Shown here piece after piece: positions 24,640 to 54,381 of a DNA stretch of 64,000 bases (positions are counted from its first letter, which is position 1; each line of letters opens with the position of its first letter). Made by a program: the position numbers and the translations under genes. The stretch spans positions 35,092,001 through 35,156,000 of the forward strand of contig JANJGN010000006.1 of NCBI GenBank assembly GCA_026770705.1, in the 5' to 3' direction. This DNA comes from Isurus oxyrinchus. Its lineage: Eukaryota. The notes beneath the pieces were generated by a model. The model saw only the letters and a program-made list of their open reading frames with translations. It was not told the DNA's origin and did no database searches.

Positions 24640-24745
24640 GATAAAAAAGTTCTGTCGAAGGGTCATGAGGACTCGAAACGTCAACTCTTTTCTTCTCTGC
24701 CGATGCTGCCAGACCTGCTGAGTTTTTCCAGGTAATTCTGTTTTT
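24640..24745 (+). mobile_element. Young 106-bp hammerhead-motif retro-insertion with TSD
   Basis: Direct repeat GTCAAGGAGCACAGT at 24625-24639 and 24746-24760. Near-identical to 50407-50505. Confidence 0.9.
24648..24686 (+). ncRNA. Minimal type I hammerhead-like motif with variant core CUGUCGA
   Basis: AGTT-CTGTCGA-A-GGGTC-ATGAG-GACTC-GAAA-CG-TC-AACT: stem I AGTT/AACT, stem II GGGTC/GACTC, palindromic ACGT in place of stem III. Confidence 0.65.
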
Positions 24746-25169
24746 GTCAAGGAGCACAGTACTGTGTTATATAAGCCTGTTCTGCAACTGCACCTGGTGT
24801 ATTGTGTCCAGTTTCAGTCCCTAGTTTAAAAGATGTCAAGACTTTACAGCAAATATAGAGAAGAGTAACTGGGATGATAGCTTCACTATGAGGAGAGGCT
24901 TCCGAACTCACTGAGGAGAAATGCAGGTTTAGAGGGATGTAATTGAAGTTGATAAATGATTATGAGGCTGTACAGATTCAGTTAGATGAGTTATTTGAAA
25001 TGGATTGGTCTGGTAGAGTAAGCCTATAAAATCTGCAATTTAGTTTAGATATCAGGAAGTATTCATTTTCTTATACAATCAGCATCTTTTGGAACTAAAT
25101 AATGATTTATTTGGCTGTCTTTTAAAAGGGATCTTGGTAGGTTCCTATAGAGAAGTGAGTTGTTTTAGG

Positions 25170-25990
25170 TCTAGGAACAGAGGACTATCTAGACAATAAA
25201 AGACTAGGCCCATCTAGTTTGCCTTCTACCATTGGTGTAGTTGCAGGATACAACAATAACAGAGTTGCTGGCTAATCAATGCAATCAAACTCTATCAGCT
25301 AATCCAGAACAGACCCGGACATGAGGTGAGGAAATCACCTGTGATGAAAAGGTTCAGGAACCATAGGTCCAAAGTCTTCTGCTTCTTCCAAATGTGCCAA
25401 ACTTGCCACATATCATTTCTCAGATTACTCATAAGCTGCATCCCAAAATATTATTCTCTGAAAGAAATCTAGCTAATTTTTATTTAAATTAAGCAACATT
25501 CCCTGCTGCTATTATTTCTCTAGGGAGTTTGTTCTATAGATTTGTTGCTTATTCACTGAAATAACATTTCCACAAGTTTGTTTTGAATTTACTTTCTTCA
25601 GAGCCAAGTCCTCTAATTCTTCTTGGCAGAATGAACAAGGTCTACAGCCCCTTCAGAATCCGAGACAGAACAATTATATCACCTGTCAACCTTCTCTTTT
25701 CCAGTGAGAAAATGTTCAATTTACATAATCTTTCCTCAAAATCCAATTCTTTCATCTCCTTAATCATTCTGCTTTTCCTCATCTGCATTCTGACATTAAT
25801 ATCCTTTTTGTACTGTGACGAGTGGAACTGTACAATATATTCTAAGTGAGCTTGCACCAATGATTTATAAGGTAGCAGGATTAGCTCACTATTTTGACAT
25901 TAACCATTTAATACATCCTAGCACCTGAGTTACTTCCACCCAGTGTTGTTGCGATAGCTTCAAGTTATTACCAATCAGGACTCCCAGTCT
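25170..25990 (-). mobile_element. CR1-clade LINE 3' fragment
   Basis: ORF 25642-25860(-): VQAHLEYIVQFHSSQYKKDI...FEERLCKLNIFSLEKRRLTGDII. Confidence 0.85.
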
Positions 25991-27379
25991 CTCTCATTTT
26001 TTGTTCACGCTATATTCTTTGTGTAATATTCAATTGTTTCATTGTTCCATGTTTGATTATGTGCGCATGTCAATCATTCACTGTGTACTATAAATCAAGC
26101 CTGGCTGTGGTGACTGAGAAAGAGGAACCAAAAGAGAAAGCAAGAAGATATAAGCATGAGAGTGCAGACATTTTGAAAGCATTGAATAAAATTCCTATTC
26201 AGACATAGAACTGGTGTCATCTCTGCATTTCTCTGAGGTACAAAACACAGCATCTTCCATTTAAGTAATAAAGAGACAAAGAAATGAATTACATTTACAT
26301 AGCACCATTCACAATCTCAGGAAGTCTTAAAATGCTTTTCAAGTACTTTTGAGGTGTACTTATTATTGTAATACAAGAAATGTAACAATCAATTTGCACT
26401 TAGCAAGATTCTACAAACAGAAATGTGATAATGACTAAATAATGTGCTTTGGTCAGGTTAGTTTAGGGACAAACTTTGGCCAGGACACTGGGAATATCTC
26501 CCCTACACTTCTTCGAAATAACGCCACAGTATTTCTAAACTCACTGAGAAGGCAGGCAAAGTCTTAGTTTAATGTGTCATCTGAAAGATGGCACCTCTGA
26601 CAGTGTAGCACACCCTCAGTGCTCACTGGAGTGTCAGCCTAGATTTTGGGTGGAATTTTCCGTGCTTATTGGCGTCGGGTGGTGTTTGGTGGTGCGAGCA
26701 GACATTAAGGCAAGAAGGCCAGAATTTGGTATCATGCCATCATGAAACAAGTTTACAATCGTCTGCTCAGCCTGCTGATAGTGGGCTGCGTTTCCCTTCA
26801 TCGGACAGTGGGAGCTTCATTGTAATACATCTGCATATCATTATAAGGCCAGCCTGCTGAAATCATTCCCCCCATGCTGGATCGTCTGCTCACATCAGCG
26901 GGAAAACATGCCAGTGCAGAACATGTCTTAACAAGTGTGATGTGCAGAAGTCGGGATTTACTGCCAGGGCCTTGGTCACATCGCGGACACCTGAGGAGCA
27001 GAAGGTGCTGGAGCCCGACAACAACAGGATCCTGAAGGAATGTCCATGGCATGCTGGGCGGATATTCATGGACATGGCTCAGATGCGAAGCAGCTCATGG
27101 AAGTTGGAAAGTTACCATTGAGGGCCTGTTCACAACAGATGATGGTCAAGGGGGTGGAGTGGAAGGTCCAGCTGTGTTTCGGAAAGGAAGTTGTACCGAG
27201 GGGGTGGGAGAGGAAGGACTAGGATCGACTGGGAGAGGTAAAGGTGTTGGGGGAAGTGAAGTTGGGAGGTGGGAAGGATTATTTCAGGAGAGAGGTTGGG
27301 AGCAGGGGGTGGAGTATGTGGGGAGGAGGGGATAACGGGGAGAAGATAGCAATTGGGGAGGTAGGTGTAAGGGGGTGGA

Positions 27380-27720
27380 AGGTGTAAGGGAAGGAGTTCA
27401 GAGAGACAAAGGAGTGTGGAGAGGAGAGGGAGTCCAGAAAGAGGAAGGAGTGCGGAGAGGGGAAGGAGTAAGGGTGGAGGAAGGAGCCAGGAAGGGGGAA
27501 GGAATAAGGCTGGAGAAAGAAGTAAGGCTGGAGGAAGAAGTAAGGCTGGAAGAATGAGTCAGGAGAGGGTAAGGACTAAAGGTGACAGAAGAAGTCAGGG
27601 TGCCTGAAGGAGTCAGGAATTGGGAAGGACTAAGGCTGGGATAGTCCAAGGGGGAGAAGGATTCCAGGTGGGAAGGAGTTCCAAGGAGCGAAGGGGTTCC
27701 AAGGGGGAAGGGGTTCTGGG
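27380..27720. repeat. Degenerate ~18-bp purine-rich minisatellite inside H2
   Basis: Units like GGAAGGAGTAAGGCTGGA; translates as a hexapeptide repeat (EGVRRG/EEVRLE). Confidence 0.7.
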
Positions 27721-28429
27721 GAGAAGGGGTCTAGAGTGGGGGATGACCAGGTGAACATGCAAGGTCCATGACTGCCTCCTGTGGAGTGAACTGAGGGTGA
27801 GTGTGGAGCAAGGGAATAGTGAGAATGACCGAGGGCAGAGTGAGACGGTAAGGTGGGAGGGTAAGGGCTCGACGGTAGCAATAGAAGGGATGGTGAGGGT
27901 GGTTGGTGGGGACTCGGAGGCAGACACAGACCCTGGGGGTGGAAGGAGGAGGTCAAGGAAATTAAAGTGGATGGCGGTGGGATTTTTGGGCAGGGAGGGA
28001 ACGTGTACATTCAGCTGGACATCCCTGAAAGAAACGGGTTGTGGCTGGGTAGGTCACGGAGTTAGGGTGGGGGGGTGGGTGGTGGGCGGTGGAGGTTGAT
28101 GCCGGGGGGTCAACAGTGATGGGGGGAAGGAAATGGGTGACTGGGGGAAGGGAAAGGATGGGGGAGTAAATTAAATAGTATTACCACCATGTTGTATAAA
28201 TTAAAAGTGAAGTGAGAGTTGTGGTGGGCAGGATCAGGTGCTGCATGGCAGTGTGATCAGTGGGTAGGTGGAGATGCAGGTCAGCTCAGATAAACAGCTG
28301 AAAGTAAACCCCAGCAGGCAGCATTGAAAACGTTCAGGACATTGAGGTGAGTGTGATACAGGAACGATCCGTGTGTGTGGGAAAGTGCTTGCACGAGGCT
28401 CCGAAAGGCCCTGCCACACATACCCTTCT

Positions 28430-30118
28430 CCCTCCAGAATCACTCGTTGGCCAGCTGTTCCCTCTGTGGTGACAGAGGACGATGGTGAGCAGCTCACGGG
28501 CAAAGGGGACTCAGAGGGAGAGGGCAGCCTCTGAGATAACTGAGCGGATGACCCAGGGGTGTCCAGCTGTTGCACCTCCTCCCACCGGGTGCCCGGGCTG
28601 ACAGGACTGACTCCTTGAGGGAAAGGAGCACTTGGAGGGGTGTCAAGGTGCCCCATTTCTCCCTTGTTGCCGCTGCAGGAGGTCACCCATGGCTACCATG
28701 ATGGAGTGCAGGGCTGAGCCCAGCTCCACATTCTGCTGGACCAGGGTCTCCACCGTGTCTGCCAAGCTTTTCATGGAGACCTCAATATGTGTGCATATGG
28801 GCACCACTTCATCAGAGAGCAGGCAGACGCAATCCTCTGACTCATGAATCACTCTGTTGTGGGCTTCCAACAGCTCTGTGTGAATTTACCCTGCCTTCTG
28901 CTGACTCTCCATGATGAGTTGGAAGGCCAAATCCAGGAGTTCGTTATCTGACTCGGACGTCACAGATGCCTGATCCCCAGCAATCCTCCGAGTTCCAGGG
29001 AGCTTGGCTGTACTTGCCTCCCCCTGCTGCTGTGGACATGTGTCCGTGTGGTGACCACCAGATTGTGATCCTGAGCCTGCTCTAGATCTAGGTCCCACCG
29101 AGGTGTGTGTCTCTGTGCTGGTGGAGGGTGTGGGTAAGCGCTGTGATGGGTCTTCCAGACTGCTTATTTCTAGCTCTTGAATGGAGGAGGTGTCCTCTTG
29201 GCTGAAGGTGAGGGCATTGGTCACCTGACAGAGCTGCTGTGAACCAAAGTAGAGATAATTAGTGCAGAGCAGCAGAGTCAAAAGCAGGAGAGAGAGACCA
29301 CTCACATTTGCATTGAGAGAGGGATGATGTGGTGCAGGATTCAAGCGTGGGTGTTCGCCTCACCGTCACCGCAGACAGGTCCATGTCCTCGCTCTTCAGC
29401 ATGATGGCACGCACCTCAAAGTGAGTGAGGGGCTTAATGTGGGCCATCCCATCCCCAGTCTAGGACCTCTCTCTGCTGATGTGAGCCAGCTTCTCCTGCA
29501 TGAAAACAGATGAAGAGAGTGTGAGCAGGATGCATGGCACTGAGTGGAATGTTTGTGTGGTAAGTGGAGCCGTAGACAGGGTGAGGACATTAGCTTGAGA
29601 GGGTATGAGCCTGATGGAGATGTGAGAGTGTGTGTGAGAGTTAGTGATGTTGTCCCTTGAGGTGTGAGATCCCTGTGGATGTGTGATGGGTTTGTGAGTG
29701 TGTGAGCTGAGTGTGATGAGAAGAGTGATTTACCCTGGTGCAATGGATGAGACCATTCACCCTGTAGTGGCACTGGGTGGCTGACCTCTTTCCAAAGATT
29801 CTTTCCATAACCTTCTCCTAGGAATTTCCACACAACTGAAGCCTGACAGTTCTGTTTTGGAAACAACAGCCAGTCTCAAGTATTTGTCTCAGATTCAGTA
29901 AATCCTCAACAATGGTTCCATGCCAGTGCCTCCCATGCTGGTTTGGTGATGCTGCTGCCCATCCTGTGGCCAGAGTGGGGGTGTGGGGGTGTGGGGGGGG
30001 TGGGGGGGGAGGGGCGGTGGTCAAGGACATCATGGCAGGCCTCCACAGTGTCCAAAACGTGTTTGTGGGACCCATCACTAAACTGGGGGACTGCAGTCTT
30101 TTTGCCTTCCGGGGCCAT
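28430..30118 (-). pseudogene. Harbinger Myb/SANT-partner gene remnant (three exons) in H2
   Basis: MAPEGKKTAVPQFSD...VLDTVEACHDVL...KPAWEALA; donor CAGG|GTAAAT; exon 2 EKLAH...; exon 3 homologous to H3. Confidence 0.75.
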
Positions 30119-30699
30119 CCTGTCTTCTGTGTGGCAGTCCTGGGCTAGAAGCACTGGGAGATGTGCATGAGGCTGCACTTTAAATATGGCGCCTGGCGTG
30201 ATGTAGCGGCATGATGTAGCAGTGAAATGATGGCGTGGTGGGCGAATGGAAACGGCGTGTTTCCTGGCGATGCTTACTTTGGGACCATATGGCGTGAGAA
30301 GCCACCATTGTGGCCAGTGTGTAAAACATTGTTTTTCCCGCCTGTTACTGCACTTAAGTGCAAATCTGGGATGATTCTGTCCTTTATGTTCAAGCCCTGA
30401 TCTGGACATTGGATAACTTTCTGGCTCAATAGTTCAAATGCTACCATGGAGCCACAGCTGACACTAAGGGTGGGATTTTCTAGACCTGCCTGCTGCCGGG
30501 ATCACCTGATCATGGTTCCGAATACACCTGGCAGACATTGTTTGTTATGGCTCTTCCACTGAGTTTGTAAGAATGCTCCCTTTGCACCCGAGAAACTTAT
30601 TTGCATTTGAGAACTTTCAGACATGAGTTCATCCTTTGTGGAGAAAATGCAAAAGTCACCTGACCCTTGTGGGCCATCTTAACCACCTTGTTAGTGTCC

Positions 30700-30985
30700 A
30701 TTTTTTGAATAAAGGGCAGTTCCAGAAAATTATACATTTATAAATGTATGAATAGGACATGTCTTCATTGGGTATGACATGAAGTATCTTGCATTTCTCT
30801 ATATTGAATTTCAATTGACTGGCCTGGTCTGAGCAACTCCCAATTATATTCAAAGACTCCTATAGCTTATCCTGTTCGGTTTTGCAGTCTACCACCCTCA
30901 TTAGGCTTACAAATTCAGCCACTGTGCTTGTGACCTTGAGCTCCAGATCATTTATGAAGATGTTAAATGAAAGAGGTCCCTGATG
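30700..30985 (-). mobile_element. CR1 RT fragment
   Basis: QLKFNIEKCKILH motif; FNIFINDLE upstream. Confidence 0.65.
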
Positions 30986-30999
30986 GTTTATGAGGCCTG

Positions 31000-31570
31000 T
31001 GTACTCAGCATCTTGTTGTATGGCTTACAGCTAACAAGAAAGGAAGCTCAATAGTTTTCATCATCGATGTCTGTGGCATATACCTGGCAAATCTCCCAAG
31101 TCTGCTAGTACTCATCAAGCAGAGGTGACTTTGTTGGCTCAGGGATGTCTGCTTGGTGGAAGACGGATGCATGCTCAAGGATATTCTGTATGGGAAGGAA
31201 CCAAAGGACCAGGCGGATGCCCAAAGCTGGACTTCGAGGATGCTTGCAAGTACGATGCAAAGGCCCTAAACATCAATGTTCACATGTGGAAGAAACTGGC
31301 CAACAACAGAGGGAAATGCCAATATAACCTGTGAACCTGCCTGTGCCACCATGACTATCAGTGGTTACAGCAGATTGATATCAGGCGACAACTCTAAATA
31401 CAACAATCCACAAAACAAATGATAACCTTCTCCTTTGTAGCACTTGTAGCAGAATCTGCAGCTCATGGATTGGCCTTTTCAGCCATCAGCAAAATAGTAC
31501 CATGTGAAGCTATTCTAATGTCAATGGATTCGCTGCAAGTCTATCATCTCAAATAGGTGAAAGGATGCTG
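31000..31570 (+). mobile_element. RTE-clade LINE 3' fragment
   Basis: GGCPKLDFEDACKYDAKALNINVHMWKKLANNR matches GRPKLRFKDVCKRDMK; a downstream C-xx-C...GLFSH remnant is present. Confidence 0.75.
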
Positions 31571-31585
31571 TGATCTCTGCTTTTT

Positions 31586-31690
31586 TAGTTCTGACAAAAG
31601 GTCATTGACATGTAATATTAGCTCTGCGCCTCTCCACAGTTACTGCTCGACCTACTGAGTAATTCCAGCTTTTCTGTCTTTACATCAAAA
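31586..31690 (+). mobile_element. Old copy of the hammerhead-motif family
   Basis: AGTTCTGACAAAAGGTCATTGACATGTAATATTAGCT followed by the CTCTCCACAG...GACCTACTGAG tail. Confidence 0.55.
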
Positions 31691-31813
31691 CCAGCGCAAA
31701 GCTGGCAATTTCTCTGTCATTTCTTCAGACATAAGAGTGCCCTTCTGCAATGACCTAGCACAATCAACCGGGTTTGGATTTAAATATCTAAACCAATATA
31801 CTTAAAAGCCCAA

Positions 31814-31950
31814 AACAAAAACAGAATTACCTAGAAAAACTCAGCAGGTCTGGCAGCATCGACGGAGAAGATGCTGCCAGACCTGCTGAGTTTTTCCAGG
31901 TAATTCTGTTCTTGTTTTGGATTTCCAGCATCCGCAGTTTTTTTTGTTTT
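31814..31950. mobile_element. Young fold-back insertion of the same family (ribozyme part absent) with TSD
   Basis: Direct repeat TACTTAAAAGCCCAA at 31799-31813 and 31951-31965. About 50-bp inverted arms (2 mismatches) around GACGGAGAA. Confidence 0.9.
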
Positions 31951-31977
31951 TACTTAAAAGCCCAAGCCTGACTTTCA

Positions 31978-32296
31978 ACAAAAGCAGAAAATGTTGGAAA
32001 TATTCATGAGGTTGGGCAGCATCTTTGGAGTGAGAAACAAACTTGAAGTTTCAGGTTGATGACCTTTCGTCAGAGCTCCCCTTTTGTTCTTTCCTCCCCT
32101 CCCTCCTTTTCACTGCCTCTCTGTGTGCTTAAAACATAATCCATTTCTAACAGCTTTCAGTTCTGACAAAGGTTATCGACCTGAAATGTTAACTTGGTTT
32201 GATTTCTCTGCCCACAGATGCTGCCTGACTTGCTGAGCATTTCCAGCATTTTCTGTTTTTATTTCAGATTTACAGCATCTGTGGTACTTTACTTTT
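31978..32296. mobile_element. Older fold-back relative with a hammerhead motif in each arm
   Basis: Minus strand of 32041-32077: AGCT-CTGACGA-A-AGGT-CATCA-ACCT-GAAA-CTTC-AAGT. Plus strand 32159-32194: AGTT-CTGACAAAGGTTATCGACCT-GAAA-TGTT-AACT. Tails point outward. Confidence 0.75.
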
Positions 32297-33364
32297 GAGT
32301 GTTAGCACTATTTTCTTTAATGTGGATAGAAATATTTATTGTGGAGCATTTGAAGGAATTATAAAAAAATCATCTCATTCATATGATGTTTTCAGCCAAT
32401 TAACGGACTCATTTAAATTTGAACCATCATATTATTTTATTATTAAAATCAATATAATAAACAGCTACTATAAAAAATGACTTTAGTTCATTTAATAGTC
32501 TTGTTATGAAAAGTGAAATGTTATAACTCACTGGGCATAGTGCTTTAATATCAAGTCCCAATATTTCCCGAACCATGACAAATGTGAAAAGTTTGACCAA
32601 ACCACCAGATTGCCCCAATTCAACCCAACTGTTTAATTTAGGTTAACAGAATATAAGCACCAGGTTTGTAAACTTAACAAGTAAATAACTATTTGTTGAA
32701 CGAATTGTCTTTAACTAGTGGCAAAAGAATGAAATATAAACTGCTAACTTCTAACACTATAATTTAAACTCCACCCCTTCTTAAATCCCTAGACACACAC
32801 ATACAGGACACACAAAAACATGGATTTTAAGGGTGGGGTAAAACAGTTCAATAGCCCCAATTCCAGGGCATAGGATTCGATGGGTTGATTTTGATCAATG
32901 TCTTCCAAATTCCTTTCAGTTCTTGTTAATGACACGAGGTGGCCTTCCAGTACTTTCAGTATTTCGTTCATTGGTAAAGCACTTGCCTTTCATTGTTTCT
33001 AACAGCGATTTTCCCCTTTGCCTCTTGACAGGGGCTTTCAGAGCAAGAGCAGGTTTTAAAGATATGAGGGGATAAAACAGCTAGCTATTATTGTGGAATT
33101 ACTGGAATCTTCCACACACAGAAGAAAGGGGTTTTAGGTTTTGTTCCTTTCAGGCTAGGAGCTATTCTACTGGACTCACACAAAATCTGGTCACCTGGTC
33201 AGGAGTCAATTAAAATGTTGTTGTCAGGCAGCTCCCTTGGTCCAGAACTCCTTTCCAGCAGGATCCTGTCTTTCATGGCACACTCTGTTCCAGGACTGCA
33301 ACATTGTATATATCTCTCACCCTGTTTCAGTGGACATGTCTTTCAACTACAGCCTTTGTAATTT

Positions 33365-33436
33365 TACCACAGTCCAACAGAAAATAAAAAGATATGTTCT
33401 TTACGACAGTCCAACAGAATAAGGAGATATGTTCCT
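33365..33436. repeat. ~37-bp tandem duplication
   Basis: ACAGTCCAACAGAA...AGATATGTTC occurs twice. Confidence 0.7.
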
Positions 33437-37509: not shown

Positions 37510-37617
37510 AAATGTCAATTCTGTTTCTTTCTCCGCAGATGCTATCAGGCCTGCTGAGTATTTCCAGCACTTTTTGTCCTTATTTCAGATTTCCAGCAAC
37601 TGCAATATTTTACTCCT
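37510..37617 (+). mobile_element. Old 3' tail copy of the hammerhead-motif family
   Basis: TTTCTCCGCAGATGCTATCAGGCCTGCTGAGTATTTCCAGCA...CAGATTTCCAGCA. Confidence 0.65.
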
Positions 37618-38197
37618 GTATCAGAAATTCTTGCTTATGAGTTGCATTTAAGTGGATGGATTTAATTGAAGTAATCTCTGCTATTATTTGCAATCGGTGT
37701 TGGTTGTTGTCCCAGCTTTAGTTTTGTTGCATTGAAGATCTGTCTACAGTAAATTGCTCATTATTGTCAGTGAGCCATTCTGTGCTGTGGATTACTTGTT
37801 TAATATCACAGGGGGCTTTCATGCAAGTAATTCATTGAAAACAAAGCCCTGTGTTTCTCCACAATCATAATATTTCTTCCCAATCCCTTTTAAATGATGC
37901 ACATGCTGTTCTGCAAAGCTTTTATCTTTCGTCAAAGCCTGGCTGTGGCAGCATTCAAGATCGGTTCCCAGGAATCGGTAAACACGGGTAGCAACATAGC
38001 ATGAATACTGTTACCATGGTACTGTGCTGCCTGGCTAACCTTGGCTTGTTTGTCAAAACAATCTTATTTTTGGGAATGTTCTATGTCTTCCAGGTGATGG
38101 ATATTCATATCAGGGAATGGAAAATATTCTATTTTCAGCCCCAAAGCCTTAATTTTCCAATTCCAGAGCAGTTCCGTCTAGAAAGGCGAATAATCCC

Positions 38198-38728
38198 ATG
38201 TTTCCAGGGAGTGTGCACGACTCCTACATCCTCAGTCAGCCACAGGCTCCTGAAGTCTTCCAGGGTCCACAGAAGCTGTGGGGACGGCACTTTGGGAACA
38301 AGGGTCACCCACAGAGCGTGTGGCTGATGACACCCGTGTGGTGGCCTCAGACTGCAGCAGAGCAAAGGTATAATGAGGCTCATGCTGCAACTCACACTTT
38401 GGTGGAGCAAACCATCGGGATGCTGAAAATGAGGTTCCGGTGCCTGGACTGGTCTGGTGGAGCCCTGCATTATAGTCCACAGAGGGTATCACGGATTGTC
38501 ATCGTCTGCTGCGCCCTTTACATGCTTGCTCTGCAACAGGGAGAGGAGCTGGCTGAGGAGGAGTTGGAGTTCTCCTCTGATAAGGACGCCCACAGGGATG
38601 AGGGTGAGGAGGTCCTCGAAGGCAACGATGATGGGGATGAAGCCCTCACACTAGTCAGACGAGGCAGGCACACTCAGGAGGCCCTCATAGCTGCTAGATT
38701 TGGGGATTATGATGACAACATGCAGTGA
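38198..38728 (+). pseudogene. Harbinger transposase C-terminal half
   Basis: FPGSVHDSYIL...GNKGHP...WLMTP...RYNEAHAATHTLVEQTIGMLKMRFRCLD...CCALY. Confidence 0.9.
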
Positions 38729-39251
38729 GGAGACACCATAGATCCTCACATAGCATCTATGACTGTTTGACTCCAGTCTGGCTGAGGGCAGCTCGCTTAC
38801 GCTCTGTGATCAGGGTCAAATCATAGAGATGCAGCCATGAAAGTTTAAAAGCACCTGAGCCCTTCAGGAGCACAGCATCACTGATCACAGATGCTGAAGA
38901 GATGGGGGCCAGCCCCACCTTAAAGGTGCTGAGAGCACAAAGAGAGAATGAGAGAATTCTGTGACTCCTGTCCACTACATTCTGGCAGCAATACAAGCAC
39001 CATTGAGATGCAGGCATCAGTAAGATGTCCAGGGAGCATGAGGCTGGACCATCACTTTGGTCTGAGAGCTGCACAAAGTTTCCTGGACTGAGACACCTGC
39101 CTTTATCTTGTTCAGAAAGGTTTCACATCTGAGTGACAAAAACACAGCTCACTAGAACAAGGAACCATAGGTAGGGAGACATTCTTGGAAGTTTATTGAC
39201 AATAGTGAATAGTACGTACAAGTGATTAATACCCATGCTCAGGCTGTGCAA

Positions 39252-40886
39252 CTACATTTTCTTAAATTTTCTAACCCTGCCACTACGTCTTGGTGTTCCC
39301 CAGACATCCACAGCATAGATGGAGGCAGCTTGCTGACTACTACATCCTGTCTGTGATGACCTTGACAGGCATACTCTGGAGGACCCAGACCTGGAGGGCC
39401 CTGGCCTGCTTTCAGGGTCCTGCTGTGTGGCAGTGGCACCCTCCTCAGCCTGTGGAGTTCGAGCTACTGAGGTCATAGGAAGAGGGGATTCGGATGGGCC
39501 CGTCACTCCTGGAGTCACCTGGATGGATGGCTCCCAGGGGTAAACCTGCTGACCCTCCTTCCTATGGGTGCCCAAGGGCCCCTGGCTGGCTCCTTGATGA
39601 GAAGGGGTAGCTGGAATGAAATCGAGCTGTTGGAGGACAATGATGCTGTCAGTTATAGAGTTGAGCCCGTGCAGCAGTGCAGGACCAATGTCCTGGACTA
39701 AGGTCTCTATGGTAGCTGCCACCCTACCAGTATTGACCTTGGTATGTTGGCATGCTGGTGCAATCACCTCAGCCAGAAGGTGGATGGACTCCTCCACTGT
39801 GCCTTGCAATCTGAGGAGTGCAGCAGACATCCCTTCCTGATGTTCCCGAGCTTGCCTTTGCAGCTCCAGCAACTGTGACATGAACGAGTCCAGAGGCTTA
39901 TCACCGGTCTCGGATTCAGCAAATTTCTGGACTCCAGCAGTCCTCCGAGTGCCGGACACCTGGGAAGTCCCTGCACCCGCCTGTTGTAGATCAGACTGTG
40001 CCAAGTACTCACCAGATTGTGATCTCAAGGCTACTGTAAATTGACGTCCCACCGAAGTGTATGCCTTTGTGCTGGTGGAGGGTGTGGGTGAGTACTGTAA
40101 TGGGGCTTCAGGGAGGGTGCCTCCAGTTTCCTTTTCAGAGGTATTTTCAGGACTTGATTGGAGGCTCGTGGACTTTGTCAACTGTTTCCCAGATGTGCCT
40201 GCGGAATCAAGGGGAGCTAATTAATGTACAGCAGTGGCCTGTGAAAAGGAACACATCACTCACAGCATGGTTGTCTGATGGGTGTTGCATTGCTGGACTT
40301 GGTAGAGCACTGCCAACCTCACCGTCAGCACAGGAACGGTCCAGATCCTCACCGGCCAACTGGACAGCTGTTTTCAAAGTCCGTGAGAACCTTGATTTCA
40401 GGCATTCCTCCACCCGTCGGCGACCTCTCCCTCTTGTTGTGTGCCAGCTTGTCCTGCAGAATAGAGAGAGTGTAAACAGGATGCCTGCTAGGGCAGATGA
40501 TAAGCATGCCTGGCATGTGTGGGTGGTTGAGTGGTCCCATGGATGGGACGAAGACAATGAAGATGTGTGGGAGAGAGTGAATGGTGATACCCCTTGAACT
40601 GGCAGTGAGTGAGGGCCCTGTGGATGCGTGGTGGGTTTGTGAGTGTGAGATTTGAGAGTCATGGCAGAATGGAGGAGATCATTCATCCTCCAGTGGCACT
40701 TTTGCAGGGCGTTAGTGCTGACCACTGCTGTCACCGCCATCCAAGCTGGATTAGTGAGGTTGCTGCCCATCCTGCAGCCAGAGCGGGCATAGAGGACATC
40801 ACAGCGAGCCTCCGCTGCATCCAAAAGGTGATGGATGAATGTTTCATAGAACTAGCGGACTGCAGTCTTTTGCCTTTCGGGGCCAT
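39252..40886 (-). pseudogene. Harbinger Myb/SANT-partner gene: exon 1 damaged, exon 2 about 40453-40264, exon 3 40198-39252 still open
   Basis: DAAEARCDVLY...PAWMAVTAVVS...RMNDLL; DKLAHNKRERSPTGGG; a 309-aa open stretch with coiled-coil-like LLELQRQAREHQEGMSAALLRLQ and C-terminal RRSGRVRKFKKM. Confidence 0.85.
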
Positions 40887-42479: not shown

Positions 42480-42790
42480 CACATATAGAATACGTAGGCA
42501 GCACAGGTCATATGAGGATGACCCTGAGGAGTTGTGTACAAGAAAAGGGCACTTCACTGAAGAAGCAACAGAACAGCTCTGTTACCTACTTTAGGAAGTC
42601 CTGCAGCTACACTCGTGTGCCTGCACTGCTCTCTTTGTGCCTATGAAAGTGACCACCACACTCTTTATGGTTCAGTCTCATTTCAGACAGCTACTTGCAA
42701 TCTCTGCATTTATCAGGTCACTGATGCCCTTTACAGGAAATGTGGGAAATTCATAACCTTTGACATGACAATACAGCAGAGTCACTCACT
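42480..42790 (+). pseudogene. Ancient Harbinger transposase N-terminal relic
   Basis: TALFVPMKVTT / YGSVSFQT...CIYQVTDALYRKCGKFITF is homologous to VTVALNFxASGSFQ...CIKEVTDALYRK. Confidence 0.6.
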
Positions 42791-42819
42791 TTCCCAGAGT
42801 CTTGGTGGTGGTATGTTAC

Positions 42820-43245
42820 ATAGAAACACAGCACAATAACAGGTCACTTGGTGCAATAGGACTATAACAGTATTTTGGTTCCACAAGAACTTCCTCCTAA
42901 CCTGCTTCATCTCAGCTAATCAGCATTGCCTTCTAGTTACCATGTAATATAAGGCTTCTCCTTAAATTCTCTAGCCCATTTGCCTCAACTACTTTATTTG
43001 GCAGCAAGTTCCACAATCTAACCACTCTCTTGATAATGAAGTTTCCTCTGAATTCCTTATTGGATCCTAGCTAACTCTTTCTAAATGTCATAATTTCAGC
43101 CGGTAACTAAATCAGCTGGTTTCAGAAACAGTTTGGATTCTCCCAAAAGTGGAAACATATTTTCTGCATATACCCAATGAAACCAATTCATAATTTTAAA
43201 GACTTTTATTAAGTCATCATCGAGCCTTCTCTTTTCTGGAGAAAA
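42820..43245 (-). mobile_element. Decayed CR1 3' fragment
   Basis: CATAGAAACACAGCAC tail; GCAAGTTCCACAATCTAACCACTCTC; similar to 7653-8050. Confidence 0.6.
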
Positions 43246-45925: not shown

Positions 45926-46659
45926 TTTGTCATTCTCGGCCCCATTTGCCTTGGTCATCTGACAAAAATCTGGCTCTAGAAGTTGCTGTCAGTTTCAGAG
46001 GAGTAATGACTCTGAATGCTGACTGTTTCACCATCAGTACCGCCACACAACCTGGGCCATTAATGTTCTTTTCCTCAGTGTAAACCTCATCATTCAGAAA
46101 TGTTCTTGTATTCATAAAGTTTGAAAACATTACAATCAAGTTGGCTGAACTGTCATGTCACAAGACTTTAGATACTGAATCTCATCTTTAAGATTACCTT
46201 CTGTCGATTGCTAAGCTACACTCATGCAATATGATATTAAAGGTTTTAATAGGGTCTTAATACTAATACCAAAATATTTATGGAAACAGCACCTTTCGAA
46301 GGCCTGTGAATTTGGGATGACAAGTTTCAGTGAGCATTTCAGTCACTATCCAAACATTTCTTCTTTCAAATAAATCACGACCACAATCTATTATATTATT
46401 GAATTTTGTAGTCAGTGGCGAAGGAACTACACTCAGCATTCATCTTGAAAAACGCTGCTTACAAAGTTTTAGCAGGCTCCAGAGATCAGACTTCTTTTCT
46501 GATGTCAGTTTGAATTCAGCACCTTCTACATGCATTCCATGGTATCTAGCAACGGGGCAGTCAGCAGGTATACTGATCGCTCAGTCAGATTGTAGAATGC
46601 TCACCGACCACAAACCAAATGTAAAAAGAAGGGATTATAAAATTGCCTTGAGAGGATAG

Positions 46660-46794
46660 TTAATGCAGGGGAAGGCACTGGTTGGATTCCATTTGGAGTA
46701 CTGTGCACGATTCTGGTCTCTATAATTACGGAGGTGCATGGAAGTACTGGAGCAGGTGCAGAGGAGATTTGCAGAGATGATCCAGGAACTGAGA
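46660..46794 (+). mobile_element. CR1 fragment
   Basis: HLEYCARFWSL and LEQVQRRFAEMIQELR motifs. Confidence 0.7.
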
Positions 46795-47244
46795 CGGGTG
46801 GGTGATCAGGTGATTGGAGGGGTAGCTGGGTCAGGGAGGAGTTGTCAGGTAGTTCACCAGGGAGTCGGGGGCCAGGCAGGGGGATGGGGGGTTTTGTGGC
46901 GGGGGGTGGGGGGGGGGGGGGGGGGGGGCGGTGCGGGTGTATGTGGGGTGGCGGGGATGGTGGTATGGGTCAGTAGTACAATTACCCAGGAGTTAAGACT
47001 GGTCATAATCCTTGTAACTTTTCTTGGGTAACTATTTTGCTAAACGAGTCAGAACCATTTGAAGTCCCTGACTTTAACTCAGAGTTTCAGAGGGTTCCAG
47101 ATGTAAGGGAATTGCCCATCAGAAGTCCAAACTTCCTGGGCAATTCCCAGGTAATCATTGTGTTGGGACTTCTGAGGGGTCCCCCAGCGCATCTTGGGGA
47201 GTATGTCTGGGGTACAACCATCTGGAGGTCAGAATTTCTGAGCC
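46795..47244 (-). mobile_element. Partial reverse copy of the 44764 MITE family
   Basis: Shares TTACCCAG, GGGAATTGCC, GGCAATTCCC and GGGGTAC blocks; ends AGAATTTCTGAGCC. Confidence 0.55.
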
Positions 47245-47618
47245 AATGAATACCAATTCATGCAGGTGGAGTTTTGTGAGGAGATGTGGGACGGGGCTCA
47301 TAAGGACCATAAACACTGATATATACCAGTTGAGTTGAATGGCTTGTTTATATGTTGTAAAATTGGATGTAATTACACTTAAAGCATTGTATTGAGAGCA
47401 AAATAAAGTTTGAAACATACTCAGGGAATTAAGGGAGAAAGTCAAACAACAAAATGCAAACCAAATTTTAAAAAAATCAGTAACACATTCAATTTCTTCT
47501 GAGGGAATGAGACTCCACAAGTAAAATTAATTTTTCAGGGCAAGTGTGATTGTTCAGTATTAATTAAGACTTACTATGCTGTTTGCATAGAGCTTGAGTA
47601 TTGCTGAAAAAAGACATT

Positions 47619-47654
47619 TTGTCAAAGCTTTTTATCTCGCACTCATCAGGACAA
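47619..47654 (-). ncRNA. Decayed minimal hammerhead ribozyme in the pLTR
   Basis: TTGTC-CTGATGA-GTGCGAGAT-AAAA-AGCT-TT-GACAA; the GAAA and UC positions are mutated at CpGs. Confidence 0.65.
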
Positions 47655-48397
47655 TCACAACAATACAATGACAGGAGAAGCAACAACTTTATACTGTATG
47701 AAAAGAGAGTGCTGATGGGTTGGCAAGTGGACTCTGAGTGGTAGAGGTATTGCCATGGAGAATGCACCAGTTAATGATGATTGACAGTTAACTACCAAGC
47801 ATTGTTTGAAATTTTAAACCAGGCAGCTTGACTCTGGTCAAGACATTGTCCCAAGGAATGAACCAGCGAATGACTATTACCTATTTTGTTTAGCTGAAAC
47901 TGGTGCAATGTTTGTACATGTTCCTTCTGTCTGTAAAGAACAAGGCCCTAAGTGTTAATATATATAGCTTCCAGTACACGCAAATGCGCCACATTGCGAG
48001 CCCAACTGACAATCTTAAATTGGGTGTCAGCTTAATTTTTTGCACACTGAGGATTATTTAGCAAATGTTGTCTGAACGCGGAATCATATCACAGTGTCCA
48101 ACATTATAAGCTATGCAGACAGAAAGAAGTTGTGCACACATTGCGCCTGTGTCAGCTGAACAAAGTAAGTGATAGCCATTCGTTGGGTCATTCCTTGGGG
48201 CAATGCCTTGACTAATCAGTCAATCTGTACGGTTTAAAATTTCAAACAATCCTTGGCTGTTAACTGTCAGTCACCTTTAACTGTTACATTCTCCATGGCA
48301 ATGTCTCTACGAATCAGAGTCCACTTGTCAACAAGTCAGCACTCTCTTCTCATACAGTGTAAAGTTGTTGCTTCCCCTGACATTGATATTCTTCTGA

Positions 48398-48433
48398 TTG
48401 TCCTGATGAGTGCAAGACAAAAAGCTTCAACAA
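48398..48433 (+). ncRNA. Decayed minimal hammerhead ribozyme in the pLTR
   Basis: TTGTC-CTGATGA-GTGCAAGAC-AAAA-AGCT-TC-AACAA; G12 has changed to A. Confidence 0.7.
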
Positions 48434-48725
48434 AATTTCTTTTCTCAGCAATACTTAACTATGGCGATAAAAACTCAGTTGCTCCTGATTGAATAAAGCT
48501 TAAGGTTTTCATCAATTGTTAGAGTGAGAAGCTGATGTCTCAACAGTGACTTCTGTGCAGATTCCATCAGTGAAGACTACGACTGCGCAGACTGTGGAAG
48601 AGCAAAGTATCTCTGACACAACTTCCAGATTTACATTTTCAAAGACTCGTATAAGGGTACCATTAGTTCCAATCAGTTTTGCCCAGAAATGACAGCCTCG
48701 CCATTATTTCTAGAGCAAAATCCAT

Positions 48726-49424
48726 GATCAAGATCTTCCGGTCGGTGAGTGGGGGCGGGGTTTGCTTGCCGACCCATAAAATGATGCGGGATGATGTCAC
48801 CCTGCGTCATTTCCATTTTCAGGTCGGCGGGGGCGCAGCCGAGTCAGCTGTGCACCCACTGACCTGTCAATGGCCTATTGAGGCCATTGAGAAACTAATT
48901 AAGGTCATTAATGGACCTGTCCATCCAACCTTAAGGTTGGCGGGCAGGCCGGGAGCCTTGGTGGGCTTCGGAAAAAGCATGAGGCCTCATCCATGAGGTT
49001 TCATGAGGGTATTTAAATTTTTATCAAATCTTTCAATATATGTTGTGCACATGTCCCAACTCATGTGACAGTGTCACATGAGGGGACATGTCAGGGAAAT
49101 TTTTTTATCATTTAAAAAATTTTAACTCCGAGCTGATCTCCCTGAGGCAGCACTTACCCTCAGGGAGATCAGTACGCTCTGTTGCGTGCATGCGTGAAAG
49201 AGCGCACTCCCGGCTGAGGGAATTCCCCCCCCCCCCCACCCCCCCTCACCCTCCCCCCCCCCCCCCCACCCCCCCAACCTCCCCAGCCTGCATAGGGAGC
49301 TCATAGCACCTCTGCGTGGACATCACGCTGGGCGGGCCATAATTGGCCTGCCCATTTAAAATGGCAGTGCGCCCCTAAATGTCTGCTCCTGCACTTCCCC
49401 CACCATGGGGGGAAAATTTTTCCC
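48726..49424 (+). mobile_element. Harbinger-type MITE, three-hairpin family (copy D)
   Basis: Collinear with copies A and C; right end GGAAAATTTTTCCC; flanked by CAT on both sides. Confidence 0.8.
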
Positions 49425-50281
49425 CATGGGTAGAATTTTTCGCTGAGCGGGTGGGTCTGCGCCCAACCCCCTCGAGCATAAAATATTGTGGGCAAGTGTC
49501 CCGTTGGCATCATGCACTTGTGCGATATTTTGGTTGATGGGTGCATGTGAGTGCTGGAGCTACACCTGCCATTAATTAAGAGGCCAGTTAAGGCCATTAA
49601 AAAGACAACTGATGCTGATTTTTCATTGCCCACACAACTTTGTGTTTGTTACACAGGCAAAACGAGCAGGTGGCCAGCTGACAATCTCAAAAACCTCATC
49701 CACAGGTGGGATAAAAAGGGTTAGCAGCATTGCCAGTGTGAGTAGTGAGGATTTTGGTAGACTGCTTGCTTCTAGTGACTTATTGATATATGGCAGCTTC
49801 ATCTCTGTTCGGGGATTCACTGTTAGCATTTCCAGGCTTCATTTCAGGACTTCTTGGTGTCTCCAAAGACCCCGGAGAATTCAGACCGTGTGGACCCTTC
49901 CAGGTATCAAACAGCCTTCCATTACCTTGGTAATGGGGAATGTGGCCTCTGCTGGTGGCACCTCCTCTGAGGAGAAAGAGAAGGGCAGAAGGGAGAGGAG
50001 GCCTGGTGTCCCTATGCAGCTTCCAGGGGAGGGACCTGTGGGAAGAGAAGCACAGGCACTGGGGGTGCAGGGCCAGGAGGTAGTCCAAGGCGTTAGGGGC
50101 TGCAGAACATGCCATTATCCTGCTGCCAGGGTTTACAGGTGGCAATGCAGCTACCTCAATATGTCTGAGATGCAAAGCCAAAGGAGGCTCCGCCTCTCAA
50201 GAAAGACAGTGACATCCATTTCAAAAACAGAATTACCTGGAAAAACTCAGCAGGTCTGGCAGCATCGGCGGAGAAGAAAAG

Positions 50282-50320
50282 AGTTGACGTTTCGAGTCTT
50301 CATGACCCTTCGACAGAACT
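50282..50320 (-). ncRNA. Hammerhead-like motif (CUGUCGA variant), left arm
   Basis: Exact reverse complement of 50407-50445. Confidence 0.65.
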
Positions 50321-50406
50321 TGATTTCGAGTCCAGGAAAGAGTTGAAATATAAGCTGGTTTAAGGTGTCCAGCTTATATTTCAACTCTTTCCTGGACTCG
50401 AAATCA

Positions 50407-50445
50407 AGTTCTGTCGAAGGGTCATGAAGACTCGAAACGTCAACT
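50407..50445 (+). ncRNA. Hammerhead-like motif (CUGUCGA variant), right arm
   Basis: AGTT-CTGTCGA-A-GGGTC-ATGAA-GACTC-GAAA-CG-TC-AACT; the predicted cleavage is after GUC at 50441. Confidence 0.65.
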
Positions 50446-51799
50446 CTTTTCTTCTCCGCCGATGCTGCCAGACCTGCTGAGTTTTTCCAGGTAATTCTGT
50501 TTTTGTTTTGGATTTCCAGCATCCGCAGTTTTGTTTTGTCTTTATCTCAGTGACATCCATTTGTCAGATGATTGGGCCTGAGAACAACTCCAACTGTGTG
50601 AGTGGACACCCCATACCAATGGCTTCGAAGGTCACAGTGGCTCTCAACTTCTATGCCTCCGGCTCTTTCCAGGGCTTAGTGAGGGGTCTGTGTGGAGTCT
50701 CCCAATCAGCTGTCCACAGTTGCGTCAAGCTGGTGACAGAAGCTCTGTTCAGGCAGGTATTCACTTTCATTCATTTTATACAGACGAGGTCAGCCAGGCG
50801 GAGTGAGCCAGAGGCTTTGCAGCAATTGCTGAGTTCCCCTGTGTCCAGGGTGCAATCATCTGCACACATGTGGCCATCAAGGCGCCAGCGGGTGAGTCCG
50901 GTGCCTTCATCAACAGGAAGGGCTTCCACTCCATGAACTTGCAGATAGGATGCAGATTCTGCAGTCTGTGTAAGGTACCCTGGTAGCTCCCATGACATGT
51001 ACATCCTGAGAAACTCCCAGGTGCTGAAGATCTTCAGTGCTGCAGCCTGACTGGATAGATAGCTGCTGGGTGACAAGGGCTATCTATCGAAAAGGTGGCT
51101 TATAATGCCTCTCTGCCACTCAAGAACAGAGGCAGAGCAGCGGTATAACCAGCAGCCATGCCTCCACAAGGGTGGTGATAGGTCTTCTGAAGACTCGCTT
51201 CCGATGCCTGGACCGTTCAGGGCTAGCACTACAATAGCCACCAGAGTGGGTGTCCCTGATAGTGGTTGCATGCTGCACTCTCCACAATCTGGCACTGGCA
51301 AGTCGGGTACCCACTGGAGCAAGAGGGTCTTGACGCACCTCCATAGGCCACAGACGATGAACTCAGTCGTGATTCAGAAGAGGAGCACGGTAAGGAGAAT
51401 GCTGAGGGCTTGGAGACAGACCTTTGTAACCTCCAGGGAGGCAGGGGCACCAGGGACACCTTGGTCCAACACTCCTTCAGATAGGCTGCCAAATAATTGC
51501 TACCACCTCATAAGGGTTGCCGCCTCCATCCTGGATGTCTGCAATGACCCTTTTCTTTGACCCCAAAGTCCACTCAGTGCCTGTGCACTAAAGTTTTGAG
51601 CCACCCATGTCCAGCATCACATTCTGGTGCACCCTGCAACACATTAAATAAAAAAAGTGATAATACTCAGGCCATTACAAGAAAAGAAAATTTATCTCAT
51701 GTTGACAGTCAAAACAAATTAACAGAAGCTTCTATGGTCTTCAACTCCAGATCAGAAAACAGAAATAAAACATTGCACAACATCCCTCTTGTGCTCATG

Positions 51800-52700
51800 G
51801 TGCCTTAAATTTAAATTTGTGTGTGCTATATCTTTGTTCTTCCCCCTCACTGGCACCGGCATTGGAGACAGCCTGCTAACTTTGGGGTCTTGTTGGCTTT
51901 GATGATCTTGGTGGTTGTCCTCTGGTTAGTGGAGCCTGTGCTGGCCCCGCCTGGGAGGGAGCGGCCAGTGCCATGGCTGGCATCTTCCCAGTCATCGCAG
52001 CCTCATCAGATGCCATGGTCACTGGCAGAGGTGGGGAGGAGCTGCTGCCATCATGCAGAGTGCCCTGACAGGAGCCCACAGAGATGACAGGCAGCTCATG
52101 TGCCAAGGTGAGGTCGCTCTGGACCTCCCTGCTCACATCGATGGATGGGCGCCTAGCTGGGATACTGGGTGCATCATCCATCTCCCACACAGACACTGGC
52201 CACCTGAGCTCAGTGCCTATGTTAGGGCTTGCAGGTCTGAGTGCGACCCCAAGAACTCCTGATTCTGTTCTTGGGGCTGCCTCTCCATGAGAGTCGCCAT
52301 TCTCTCAATGGAGGAGGCAGCGGGCTCAGCCATGATGGTCAACGTAGTGCTGATGCTCCGCATGGACTCCTCCATTATGGAGACCATACCCTCATGGATC
52401 TCTGCCACATGCTCTTGCTCACCCCACTGGACATCCAGCATCTGCCACCTAATGGATGACTCCAGAGGCTCATCAGCTGTCCTCGACTAAGCATTGTCCT
52501 GGTCTCCATCAGTCCTCCAACTGCTGGCGCCCTGGGTACTCTCTGCCTCCGTCTGCACCAAAAGCGGGTGTAAAGTGCCCTCAGCCACCATCTCCAGGTG
52601 GGCCATGAAGCACTCATCAGGAAACTGGGGTGGCAGGGGTGGGGGTGGTGCTGAGTGCCCACCTGACCTGCCACCATCTGCAGCTGCGTCTGAATCCATA
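51800..52700 (-). pseudogene. H4 Myb-partner gene, last-exon remnant
   Basis: WRTDGDQDNA...MLDVQWGEQEHVAEIHEGMV...AAPSQAGPAQAP, homologous to H6 60000-60748(+). Confidence 0.7.
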
Positions 52701-52967
52701 ACTTATAATCTCCTGTTGACAATGCCAACGACAACACTGGCAGCCTTCTAGGGCCTGACTGTGCCGGTTTTAAACCAGCCGCTGGATTGCCATTGGTTTC
52801 GACGGCTGACAGGCCCCCTCCCCCACCTCCCCTTCCAGACCATTGGGAAGCCGCCAGCTTGAAATTGTGGTTGGGGGACCAATCGCGGCTGCTCCCAGGC
52901 CCACCAATTGCACTTGCCCGCTAAACTCAAAATTCTGCCCCACGGATCTGAAAATGGAAATGCTAAC

Positions 52968-53060
52968 TTAGTTCTGAAGAATAGTTATACTGAATTGTTA
53001 ACCCGTCTTTTCTCTTTACAGATGGTGAAAGGCCTAATGTGTATTTCCAGTATTTTCTCT
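52968..53060 (+). mobile_element. Old copy of the hammerhead-motif family
   Basis: AGTTCTGAAGAATAGTTATACTGAATTGTTAACC...TTTCTCTTTACAGATG...TATTTCCAG; core CTGAAGA. Confidence 0.5.
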
Positions 53061-53147
53061 ATCTATTTCTACCAATTACAATTTGATTTTTCTTATTGAA
53101 TTGAAATAGCTGACCTATCTGCATTCAGAAGATACTGAAAAATGTAT

Positions 53148-53935
53148 GTCATAGAATCATAGAATAGATACAGCACAGAATAAGGCCATTCAGCCTGTTG
53201 TGCCTGTGTTGGCCCTCTGAAGAAGCAATTCACCTACTGCCATTCCCCTTCTTTACCCGTAGCCCTGCACATTCTTTCTTTTCAGATAATAATCCAACTC
53301 CCTCTTGAATGCCTTGAATGAACATGCCTCCACTCTCAGACAGTACATTCCAGATCTTAAACACACAGTGTGAAAAAGTTTTTCCACATGTTGCTATTGC
53401 TCCTTATGCTAATTACTTTAAATCTGTGCCCCCTGGTTCTTGATCTTTGCACCAATGGGAACAGTTTTTCCCTATCTACGCTGTCCAAATCCCTCAGGAT
53501 TTGGAATACCTCTATCAAATCTCCTCGCAGCCTCCACTTCTCCAAGGAAACCAGTTCTAACTTCTCCAATCTATCTACGCAACTGAAGTTCCTCATCCAG
53601 GTAACCATTCCCATGAATCTTTTCTGCACCCTCTCTAATGCATCCACATCCTTCCTAAAGTGTGGTGCCCAGAACTGAATGCAAAATTCCAGTTGAGGCT
53701 GAACCAGTGTTTCATACAAGTTTAACATAACTTGCTTGTTTTTGTACTCTTATGCCCCTGTTGATAAAGTCTAGGATGCTGTATGCTTTATTAACTATGC
53801 TCTCAACTTGTCTACCTTCACTGATTTCTGCACATATACACCCAGGTCCCTCTGCTCCTGCGTTCCCTTTAGAATTGTACGCTTCATTTTATATTGTCTC
53901 AATGTTCTTTCTACCAAAATGAATCACTTCACACT
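53148..53935 (-). mobile_element. CR1-clade LINE 3' fragment
   Basis: ORF 53357-53728(-): LYETLVQPQLEFCIQFWAPHFRKDVDALERVQKRF...RLRGDLIEVF...TRGHRFK. CATAGAATCATAGAAT tail. Confidence 0.9.
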
Positions 53936-54270
53936 TGTCTATAATTGCAGCTTGTTCAATATTTCTGAAAAAAGGCAGAAAACCACTTTGTTAAGTTGAA
54001 TAGAACAAATAATACCTTGCTCTGAGTATGCACAGCTTCTGAGAAAAAGCTCATTTTTATACTCAGATTTCAAAACAAAAGCAATATAAAGTGTTCACTG
54101 TTCCTTGTCAGAAAGTAATACAAAACTCACGTTTAAACTTGGGTGACTCAGCAAAAAGGAACCAACGTCAAAGTTTTGTGAGTTTTTGACTTGGGGAAGC
54201 TCACTTTTCAGCAGTGAAATGGGGACCTGGAGCTAAGCCAATTTTTTGCTATTGAGCAGGAAGGGAGAAT

Positions 54271-54381
54271 GAAACGTCAACTCTTTTCTTCTCCGCCGAT
54301 GCTGCCAGACCTGCTGAGTTTTTCCAGGTAATTCTGTTTTTGTTTTGGATTTCCAGCATCCGCAGTTTTGTTTTGTTTTTA
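54271..54381 (+). mobile_element. Young 5'-truncated copy of the hammerhead-motif family
   Basis: Near-identical to 50434-50545, starting at GAAACGTC. No clear TSD. Confidence 0.85.

Follow-up and report, generated by a model that had tools for sequence, protein, structure and literature searches.

The window examined here, a stretch of 64,000 nucleotides from Isurus oxyrinchus (GenBank assembly GCA_026770705.1, contig JANJGN010000006.1, positions 35,092,001 to 35,156,000 of the forward strand), contains four related insertions, at positions 24640, 31814, 50222 and 54271, which are truncated end pieces of one young Neptune-type Penelope-like element (PLE), a retrotransposon. The original prediction, made from the letters of the window, held that they share termini and the length of their target site duplications (TSDs) while differing in how much of a fold-back survives, and attributed this either to a reproducible integration mechanism (self-priming or template switching, with breakpoints near a hammerhead ribozyme) or to stepwise deletion of unstable palindromes. 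From these copies and a larger sample of the family we propose that both strands of the target prime complementary DNA (cDNA) on one RNA, and that the two cDNAs are then joined.

Positions along the element are given on a scale, x, whose zero is the final G of CTGTTTTTG (site 1; window 50505). Site 2 is the end of the tail, at about x +38 to +45; stem I of the hammerhead starts at x -99, and its predicted cut falls after the C at x -64 (window 50441). At 50222 an inverted arm on the minus strand (50222-50368, site 1 to x -146) is followed by a plus-strand arm (50369-50547, x -136 through the tail to site 2), between exact 15-bp repeats at 50207-50221 and 50548-50562, all duplications being given on the plus strand. 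The segment 50222-50358 is complementary to 50369-50505 over all 137 bases, which is the full hairpin that had been predicted, and the last 10 nt of the inverted arm, which appear as a loop, are ten further left-arm bases. The plus-strand arm holds a TATA-like motif at 50375, the breakpoint hotspot position described below at 50407, a putative minimal hammerhead with its predicted cut after 50441, and site 1 at 50505. The insertion at 31814, between exact 15-bp repeats at 31799-31813 and 31951-31965, likewise has the expected hairpin of about 50 bp: its inverted arm (31814-31871, minus strand, site 1 to x -55) and its plus-strand arm (31870-31950, x -44 through the tail to site 2) reach 55 and 44 nt, and the ribozyme lies outside both. 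At 24640, again between exact 15-bp repeats (24625-24639 and 24746-24760), a 9-nt minus-strand piece that is the reverse complement of the tail end (24640-24648, the site 2 arm) meets, with an overlap of 2 nt and within stem I of the hammerhead, a plus-strand arm that runs from the hotspot (x -99) to site 1 (24647-24746; minimal hammerhead, predicted cut after 24682), a layout seen once more among the sampled loci (L093). The copy at 54271 is a single plus-strand arm (54271-54382, x -71 to site 2) with no inverted partner. It begins at the ribozyme sequence GAAAC, 8 nt ahead of the predicted cut, and has no TSD: the longest word that its flanks have in common is 5 nt, and one of 7 nt is found only at 55 bases away.

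Comparison of an orthologous locus, which the original prediction had suggested, is informative for 24640. Contigs from three of the four DNA runs, aligned to 24250-25150, skip exactly 24625-24745, that is, the insert and one copy of the duplication, and carry the 15-bp repeat once; 13 letters fit on either side, and the fourth run is without coverage there. The runs with the empty site come from two studies, and their flanks differ from the window by about 2%, as in a close relative or a distant population. The 24640 insertion and its duplication are real. No paralogous empty site for the window copies was found among the first 60 matches listed for the sampled loci.

In longer copies the sequence upstream of the shared end enters the end of an open reading frame (ORF), and in one natural copy, at locus L061, a 926-aa ORF lies between two copies of the same pseudo-long terminal repeat (pLTR), in a unit of 3,324 bp. 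The ends belong to a 3.3-kb element that encodes a reverse transcriptase (RT) and a GIY-YIG domain. The ORF matches RVT_1 with E 2.3e-8, above the Pfam cut-off, as expected of the single RT ORF of endonuclease-positive (EN+) PLEs, and its C-terminus matches GIY-YIG (PF01541) with E 1.7e-4 and 22.2 bits, just below the cut-off of 22.6; PF01541 is present in many full-length relatives, in agreement with the C-terminal GIY-YIG domain of EN+ PLEs. The tandem pseudo-LTRs, the inverted truncated copy and the tail of 30-40 nt also agree with EN+ PLE anatomy. The linker carries CxxxxCxxC, a mark of Neptune and Nematis (PMC8557442). The nearest named relatives of the ORF are bamboo-shark proteins (63-67%), which by themselves make a shark the probable host. 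From the motif we take the element to be a Neptune, no named Neptune reference being among the relatives found. A 40-mer taken from the end common to the copies occurs without mismatch at 97,121 places in the 4.98-Gb genome, and at 2,941 places genome-wide the sequence continues from the tail into the beginning of the ORF; both 3' ends, sites 1 and 2, are therefore internal sites of the RNA. We rejected a miniature inverted-repeat or other cut-and-paste DNA transposon, since the ends are asymmetric (one has the tail) and the centres, of 17 to 1,946 nt per arm, run into the RT ORF. Positions 1-7908 of L061 form a nested cluster of several PLE copies, tandem and inverted, of which one has the uninterrupted ORF, and at five other loci (L020, L029, L030, L326 and L327) copies are inserted in the 3' region of their own family. 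A GT donor-like and AG acceptor-like pair (L061:4565-4655) flanks both priming sites. Should this be an intron, unspliced RNA alone could serve as the template; in four RNA-like contig runs no splicing across it was seen.

The family-wide analysis covers 252 distinct clusters (L001-L240 and the window), of which 221 were kept: 86 simple head-to-head pairs, 86 single arms, 19 complex insertions and 30 that touch a locus edge. The 31 clusters left out (29 loci, from the first similarity search) are biased toward long arms, and arms below about 45 nt enter the sample solely as partners of another arm. One site-1 end is paired with one site-2 end in 81 of the 86 head-to-head pairs; one pair has two site-1 ends, none has two site-2 ends, and four have an end elsewhere. 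TSDs flank 77 of the 86 pairs, 61 of them 13-15 bp long with a mode of 14, and 29 of the 86 single arms, with a median of 11; mismatched-flank controls gave a duplication in 1/400 and 6/400 cases, none of those in the first set exceeding 9 bp. The three window copies, with 15 bp, probably add to this mode of 14 a single base whose match to the element end is due to chance or microhomology.

A target logo, which together with the TSD length distribution had been proposed as a check, gives the same loose half-site, W|GYYKGNT, just outside the TSD on both strands. Positions -1 and +1 of the motif are biased by the way TSDs are delimited and +2 to +7 are free of such bias; at +3, 57 of the 60 half-sites that border 14-bp TSDs carry a pyrimidine (p 6e-11). 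With 14-bp TSDs the leave-one-out half-site score is highest at offset 0, and with those of 12 and 16 bp the maximum moves by one base, a dependence on apparent TSD length that is as expected if the two strands were cut with a 14-nt stagger.

The inner ends of the arms are also non-random. To guard against subfamily alignment artefacts we consider strictly joined arms, which end within 4 nt of their partner or of the TSD; seven arm ends are poly-C alignment breaks. The histogram of breakpoints relative to the cleavage site is sharp and non-uniform: 47 of the 90 strictly joined arms that end between x -135 and -45 do so at -105 to -94, and two of the 90 end at the cut site (x -66 to -60), which shows no excess. 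The hotspot at x -98, roughly 25-fold enriched, is the 5' edge of the ribozyme, 35 nt upstream of the cut, and it lies directly against the TSD in 9 of 13 strict single arms; a smaller peak is seen at x -85 to -83. The expectation of breakpoints near the ribozyme thus holds for its 5' edge and fails for the cleavage site. Genome-wide, where ends were counted as pattern matches per preceding dinucleotide, there are 6,095 matches at x -98 (6/16 dinucleotides, about 1,000 each) and 390, 358 and 259 at -63, -60 and -67 (9/16 dinucleotides; 43, 40 and 29 each), a ratio that is rough, as the patterns differ and favoured junctions inflate some dinucleotides. Among 40 loci with an x -98 end, hand-picked and hence non-random from the first 100 listed, 37 are true breakpoints, many directly against the TSD, and the other three are subfamily variants in the upstream sequence. 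An artefact of aligning subfamilies was rejected as the source of the hotspot, which persists in arms joined within 4 nt and in these inspected loci, as was a 3' splice site at x -97, where the AG also belongs to stem I and many ends retain upstream bases.

Upstream of x -98 a TATA-like motif lies at 29-30 nt in 47/51 copies or at 32 nt in 87/89, depending on subfamily, and thus at 29-32 nt in 134 of the 140 copies that keep it, which is modest evidence as the subfamilies are close kin. Because the end is sharp to the base and stands at TATA-initiator spacing, we read x -98 as the predicted, and probable, start of the transcript. In four complex insertions (L045, L094, L155 and L178) one arm jumps elsewhere in the element at x -98 to -105, or at -63 in L178, as expected of template jumping at the end of an RNA.

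The ribozyme has the layout of a minimal type I hammerhead with the core CUGUCGA: in 253 of 263 copies position 6 is U, in place of the A of the canonical core (CUGANGA). Judged by sequence, the canonical core of an active hammerhead is lacking, and the predicted cut site has no excess of breakpoints; cleavage is probably not what sets them. An Rfam scan of the window finds no hammerhead family at E up to 1, and we regard its long-hairpin matches (microRNA and plastid untranslated region, below gathering scores) as palindrome artefacts. A conserved anti-ribozyme helix upstream of the hammerhead was rejected, being predicted in the main subfamily only.

The two arms of a pair are closely related to each other. 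They share subfamily letters, agreeing at x -102 in 26 of 27 pairs (minor letter 42%) and at x -121 and -119 in 25 of 25, and private mutations are nonetheless present. Gene conversion after insertion was rejected as the cause of this identity, as at an anchor column 29 pairs differ and five share a change. Arm lengths are coupled, both short in 50 pairs, both long in 27 and mixed in four, with rho 0.73 among the 31 pairs that have a long arm, and the longer arm is the site-1 arm in 43 pairs and the site-2 arm in 24 (p 0.03). Of 81 junctions 16 are without exact resolution; the 65 resolved ones comprise 36 with inserted bases, 10 blunt and 19 with microhomology.

Because both outer ends are element 3' ends within one TSD, each target strand must be joined to the start of a cDNA. 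The simplest account of the symmetric target with its fixed stagger, of the assignment of one strand to each start site, of the variants that the arms share and of the coupling of their stops is that one RNA is copied twice after nicking by a dimer. We put the probability that both target strands prime cDNA on one RNA, and that the two cDNAs are then joined, at about 0.6. In this model a likely dimeric endonuclease, as the target symmetry suggests, would nick both strands about 14 nt apart, with a W|GYYKGNT half-site after each nick. Of the two 3' ends, one would prime at site 1 and the second would use site 2, which lies about 40 nt farther downstream on that RNA, leaving one outer end tailed and the other tail-less. 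Both cDNAs would head to the 5' end of the RNA and stop close together, most often at x -98, and their 3' ends may then undergo trimming before they are joined, whether bluntly, through 1-5 nt of microhomology or with extra bases inserted. Different cDNA lengths would account for the series in the window: 146 and 136 nt at 50222, 55 and 44 nt at 31814, 99 nt plus 9 nt of tail at 24640, and one arm at 54271. The part of the original prediction that called for a reproducible mechanism is thus borne out by the fixed pairs of ends, the narrow TSD length, the target motif and the sharp hotspot.

Several observations weigh against this proposal. All its steps are read from genomic products, and the RNA data (23 runs, of which four were aligned) consist of contigs, a form unable to show RNA starts. 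Among 30 copies whose sequence continues into the ORF, only three have their start in the hotspot and 11 extend past x -499, so x -98 is not the sole RNA 5' end, and the extra G before -98 that a cap would leave is not seen (887/6,095). At the target, spacing fits of half-sites in single sites are noisy (14 in 11 of 30 sites with a 14-bp TSD), the half-site signal in single arms without a TSD is marginal (p 0.05-0.09), and primer-template microhomology of 1.1 and 1.7 nt is set against a null of 0.4 that is too low, chance extension of the TSD also being counted. The 29 junctions without inserted bases have a mean microhomology of 1.34 nt against 0.67 by chance (p 0.0002), and the same junction, with 2 nt of microhomology, is found in 7 of 20 inspected loci; both fit a fold-back too, and the shared variants and coupled arm lengths fit it equally well.

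Such a fold-back, in which one long cDNA copies itself into the mirror arm and a short second cDNA or an endonuclease cut then sets the far end at the other tail site, is a published hypothesis for PLE palindromes (PMC3846280) and retains the self-priming of the original prediction as a serious, if unlikely, rival. The excess of microhomology supports it in part, the recurrent junction could come from a 4-nt loop, and in 6 of 30 inspected loci broken at x -63 the -98 arm is joined to the partner strand of stem I. Extrapolated to the 390 matches, however, that pairing explains no more than about 80 joins in the genome, where -98 ends number in the thousands, and 46 of the 65 resolved junctions are blunt or have inserted bases. 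Hairpin loops need about 3 nt or more, whereas the central spacer is 0-2 nt in ten pairs, three being perfect spacerless palindromes and seven having 1-2 nt. Both arms often stop independently at the same position, and a second event at a fixed site is still required for the pairing rule, so that priming by two strands fits better. Decay of palindromes that were full at first, with the centre lost stepwise through instability, is very unlikely. Since the ends and the TSD would survive deletion of a centre, decay is compatible with any one copy, that at 24640 among them, and asymmetry does rise slightly with arm divergence (rho 0.17), but the trend is not significant (p 0.14, n=79, low power; strong asymmetry in 2/14 undiverged and 15/65 diverged pairs) and lends no support to stepwise deletion. 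Spacerless palindromes persist, the -98 end is also found in single arms directly against the TSD, which deletion does not predict, and no fuller allele of 24640 is seen, the three covering DNA runs carrying the empty site.

Two further alternatives concern the hotspot alone. That x -98 is a pause of the RT at an RNA structure, or a processed end, in place of a transcript start is about as doubtful as a fold-back or slightly more so. The upstream sequence of the main subfamily is predicted to pair with x -98 to -84 (0.54 vs 0.42 in shuffles), and the smaller peak at -85 to -83, the weak enrichment of read-through copies at -98 and the missing cap signature point the same way. Against a pause, the other subfamilies are not predicted to form this pairing (0.43 vs 0.50 in shuffles), yet the hotspot is equally frequent in arms tagged as belonging to them (20/55 vs 48/126, p 0.87, with an imperfect tag), and the sharpness of the end and its TATA-initiator spacing favour a start. 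Hammerhead self-cleavage, as the source of an RNA 5' end that sets truncation and inversion points, is the least probable explanation. In one complex insertion (L178) the two arms stop at x -63, where a template jump occurs, and there are 390 matches at -63, but counts at -60 and -67 are similar, next to no strict arms end at the cut, and 30 inspected -63 loci include eight small deletions in an intact ribozyme besides the six stem-I joins. The U6 core also argues against cleavage, which is unnecessary for insertion of an anole element (PMC11167929).

Returning to priming by both target strands, we offer a fuller version of it tentatively, at somewhat less than even odds, as an obligate double target-primed reverse transcription by which PLEs would integrate. 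A dimeric GIY-YIG endonuclease would read two GYYKGNT half-sites and cut 14 nt apart, with one strand per start site; the TATA and initiator of every pLTR would start an RNA exactly at the first base of the ribozyme, run-off copies of about 140 nt would flood the genome, and the ribozyme of this family would be catalytically dispensable. If true, a single model would account for tail, inversion and TSD, and the in vitro system would gain a concrete target.

Other repeats surround the four insertions. The 50222 copy sits in a decayed transposase region (50563-51300), presumably Harbinger-like, whose stop-free part 50807-50983 weakly matches DDE_Tnp_4 (E 0.0014, below the cut-off). Eleven nt past the TSD of the 31814 copy, two copies of a related PLE end lie head to head (31977-32290); they are older and diverged, and their hammerhead cores have the canonical A at position 6. 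A further old PLE end, at 37510-37630, shares about 78% identity with the young family and lacks the 5' half of the ribozyme. Related repeats at 7220-7423, 9944-10396, 13915-14372 and 48796-49367, direct and inverted and 70-84% alike, resemble transposon ends. Kilobase-scale repeats in both orientations at 18218-19336, 28733-30207, 38281-40882, 51783-52581 and 55286-60760, 65-88% alike, are probably one DNA-transposon family, and an 865-bp element with long arms that are 81-88% complementary (47594-48458) is by comparison unrelated to the PLE end.

How PLEs build inverted, tailed insertions is a question stated as open in PMC8557442 and PMC11167929. Self-priming (PMC3846280) and two internal start sites (PMC11167929) are already published. 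Our literature search found no account for PLEs of twin priming, the paired-site rule, a 14-bp TSD or 14-nt stagger, symmetric half-sites or a 5' hotspot; older subscription papers and supplements were outside its scope, and absence from print is thus not established. The value of the present work lies in measurements and not in a new system: some 10^5 nearly identical young copies in one genome make PLE integration testable in numbers, namely the stagger of 14 nt, the symmetry of the target motif, the nearly obligatory combination of the two start sites and the 5' stop, which falls at the predicted transcript start and not at the ribozyme cut.

In twin priming of L1 both target strands prime cDNA on one RNA, leaving an inverted 5' part within one TSD, and the second primer anneals at variable internal sites so that the cDNAs barely overlap. 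The shark family differs from this in that neither start site varies and the two cDNAs overlap over almost their whole length, which gives palindromes.

The anatomy itself is not new: PLEs with an inverted truncated copy, a tail, a TSD and a hammerhead have been described in print. Like the EN+ PLEs Penelope/Poseidon and Neptune (PMC8557442, PMC3846280), the shark element has a single RT and C-terminal GIY-YIG ORF, pseudo-LTRs in partial tandem, an adjoining inverted 5'-truncated copy, a 30-40-nt tail at one end, a TSD, and a predicted hammerhead and TATA/initiator-like motifs in the pLTR; TATA and initiator were noted in the pLTR of a rotifer PLE (PMC3846280). As described in the same two papers, TSDs are 8-10 bp in rotifer PLEs and the tail is optional, whereas the shark pairs have TSDs of 14 +/- 1 and a nearly obligate pairing of tailed and tail-less ends. 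The measurable symmetric target half-site and the sharp 5' hotspot go beyond these descriptions. The ribozyme resembles the minimal type I hammerheads described for metazoan PLEs (PMC4209133) in its short stem I, the extra base before stem II, the palindromic stub in place of stem III and the occurrence of opposite-strand pairs 100-700 bp apart, and differs from them in its U6 core.

The closest experimental counterpart is PAc (Poseidon of Anolis carolinensis), for which both target strands are cut and extended in vitro and two RT start sites bound the tail (PMC11167929). The shark family is probably like PAc in its two start sites bounding the tail, the use of both strands, a predicted dimer and the dispensability of ribozyme cleavage. 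The main text of PMC11167929 is without treatment of TSDs, stagger or inverted products. PAc is reported there to prefer ATT in AT-rich DNA, with non-homologous priming, whereas the shark family has the target W|GYYKGNT and a likely primer-template match of 1-2 nt.

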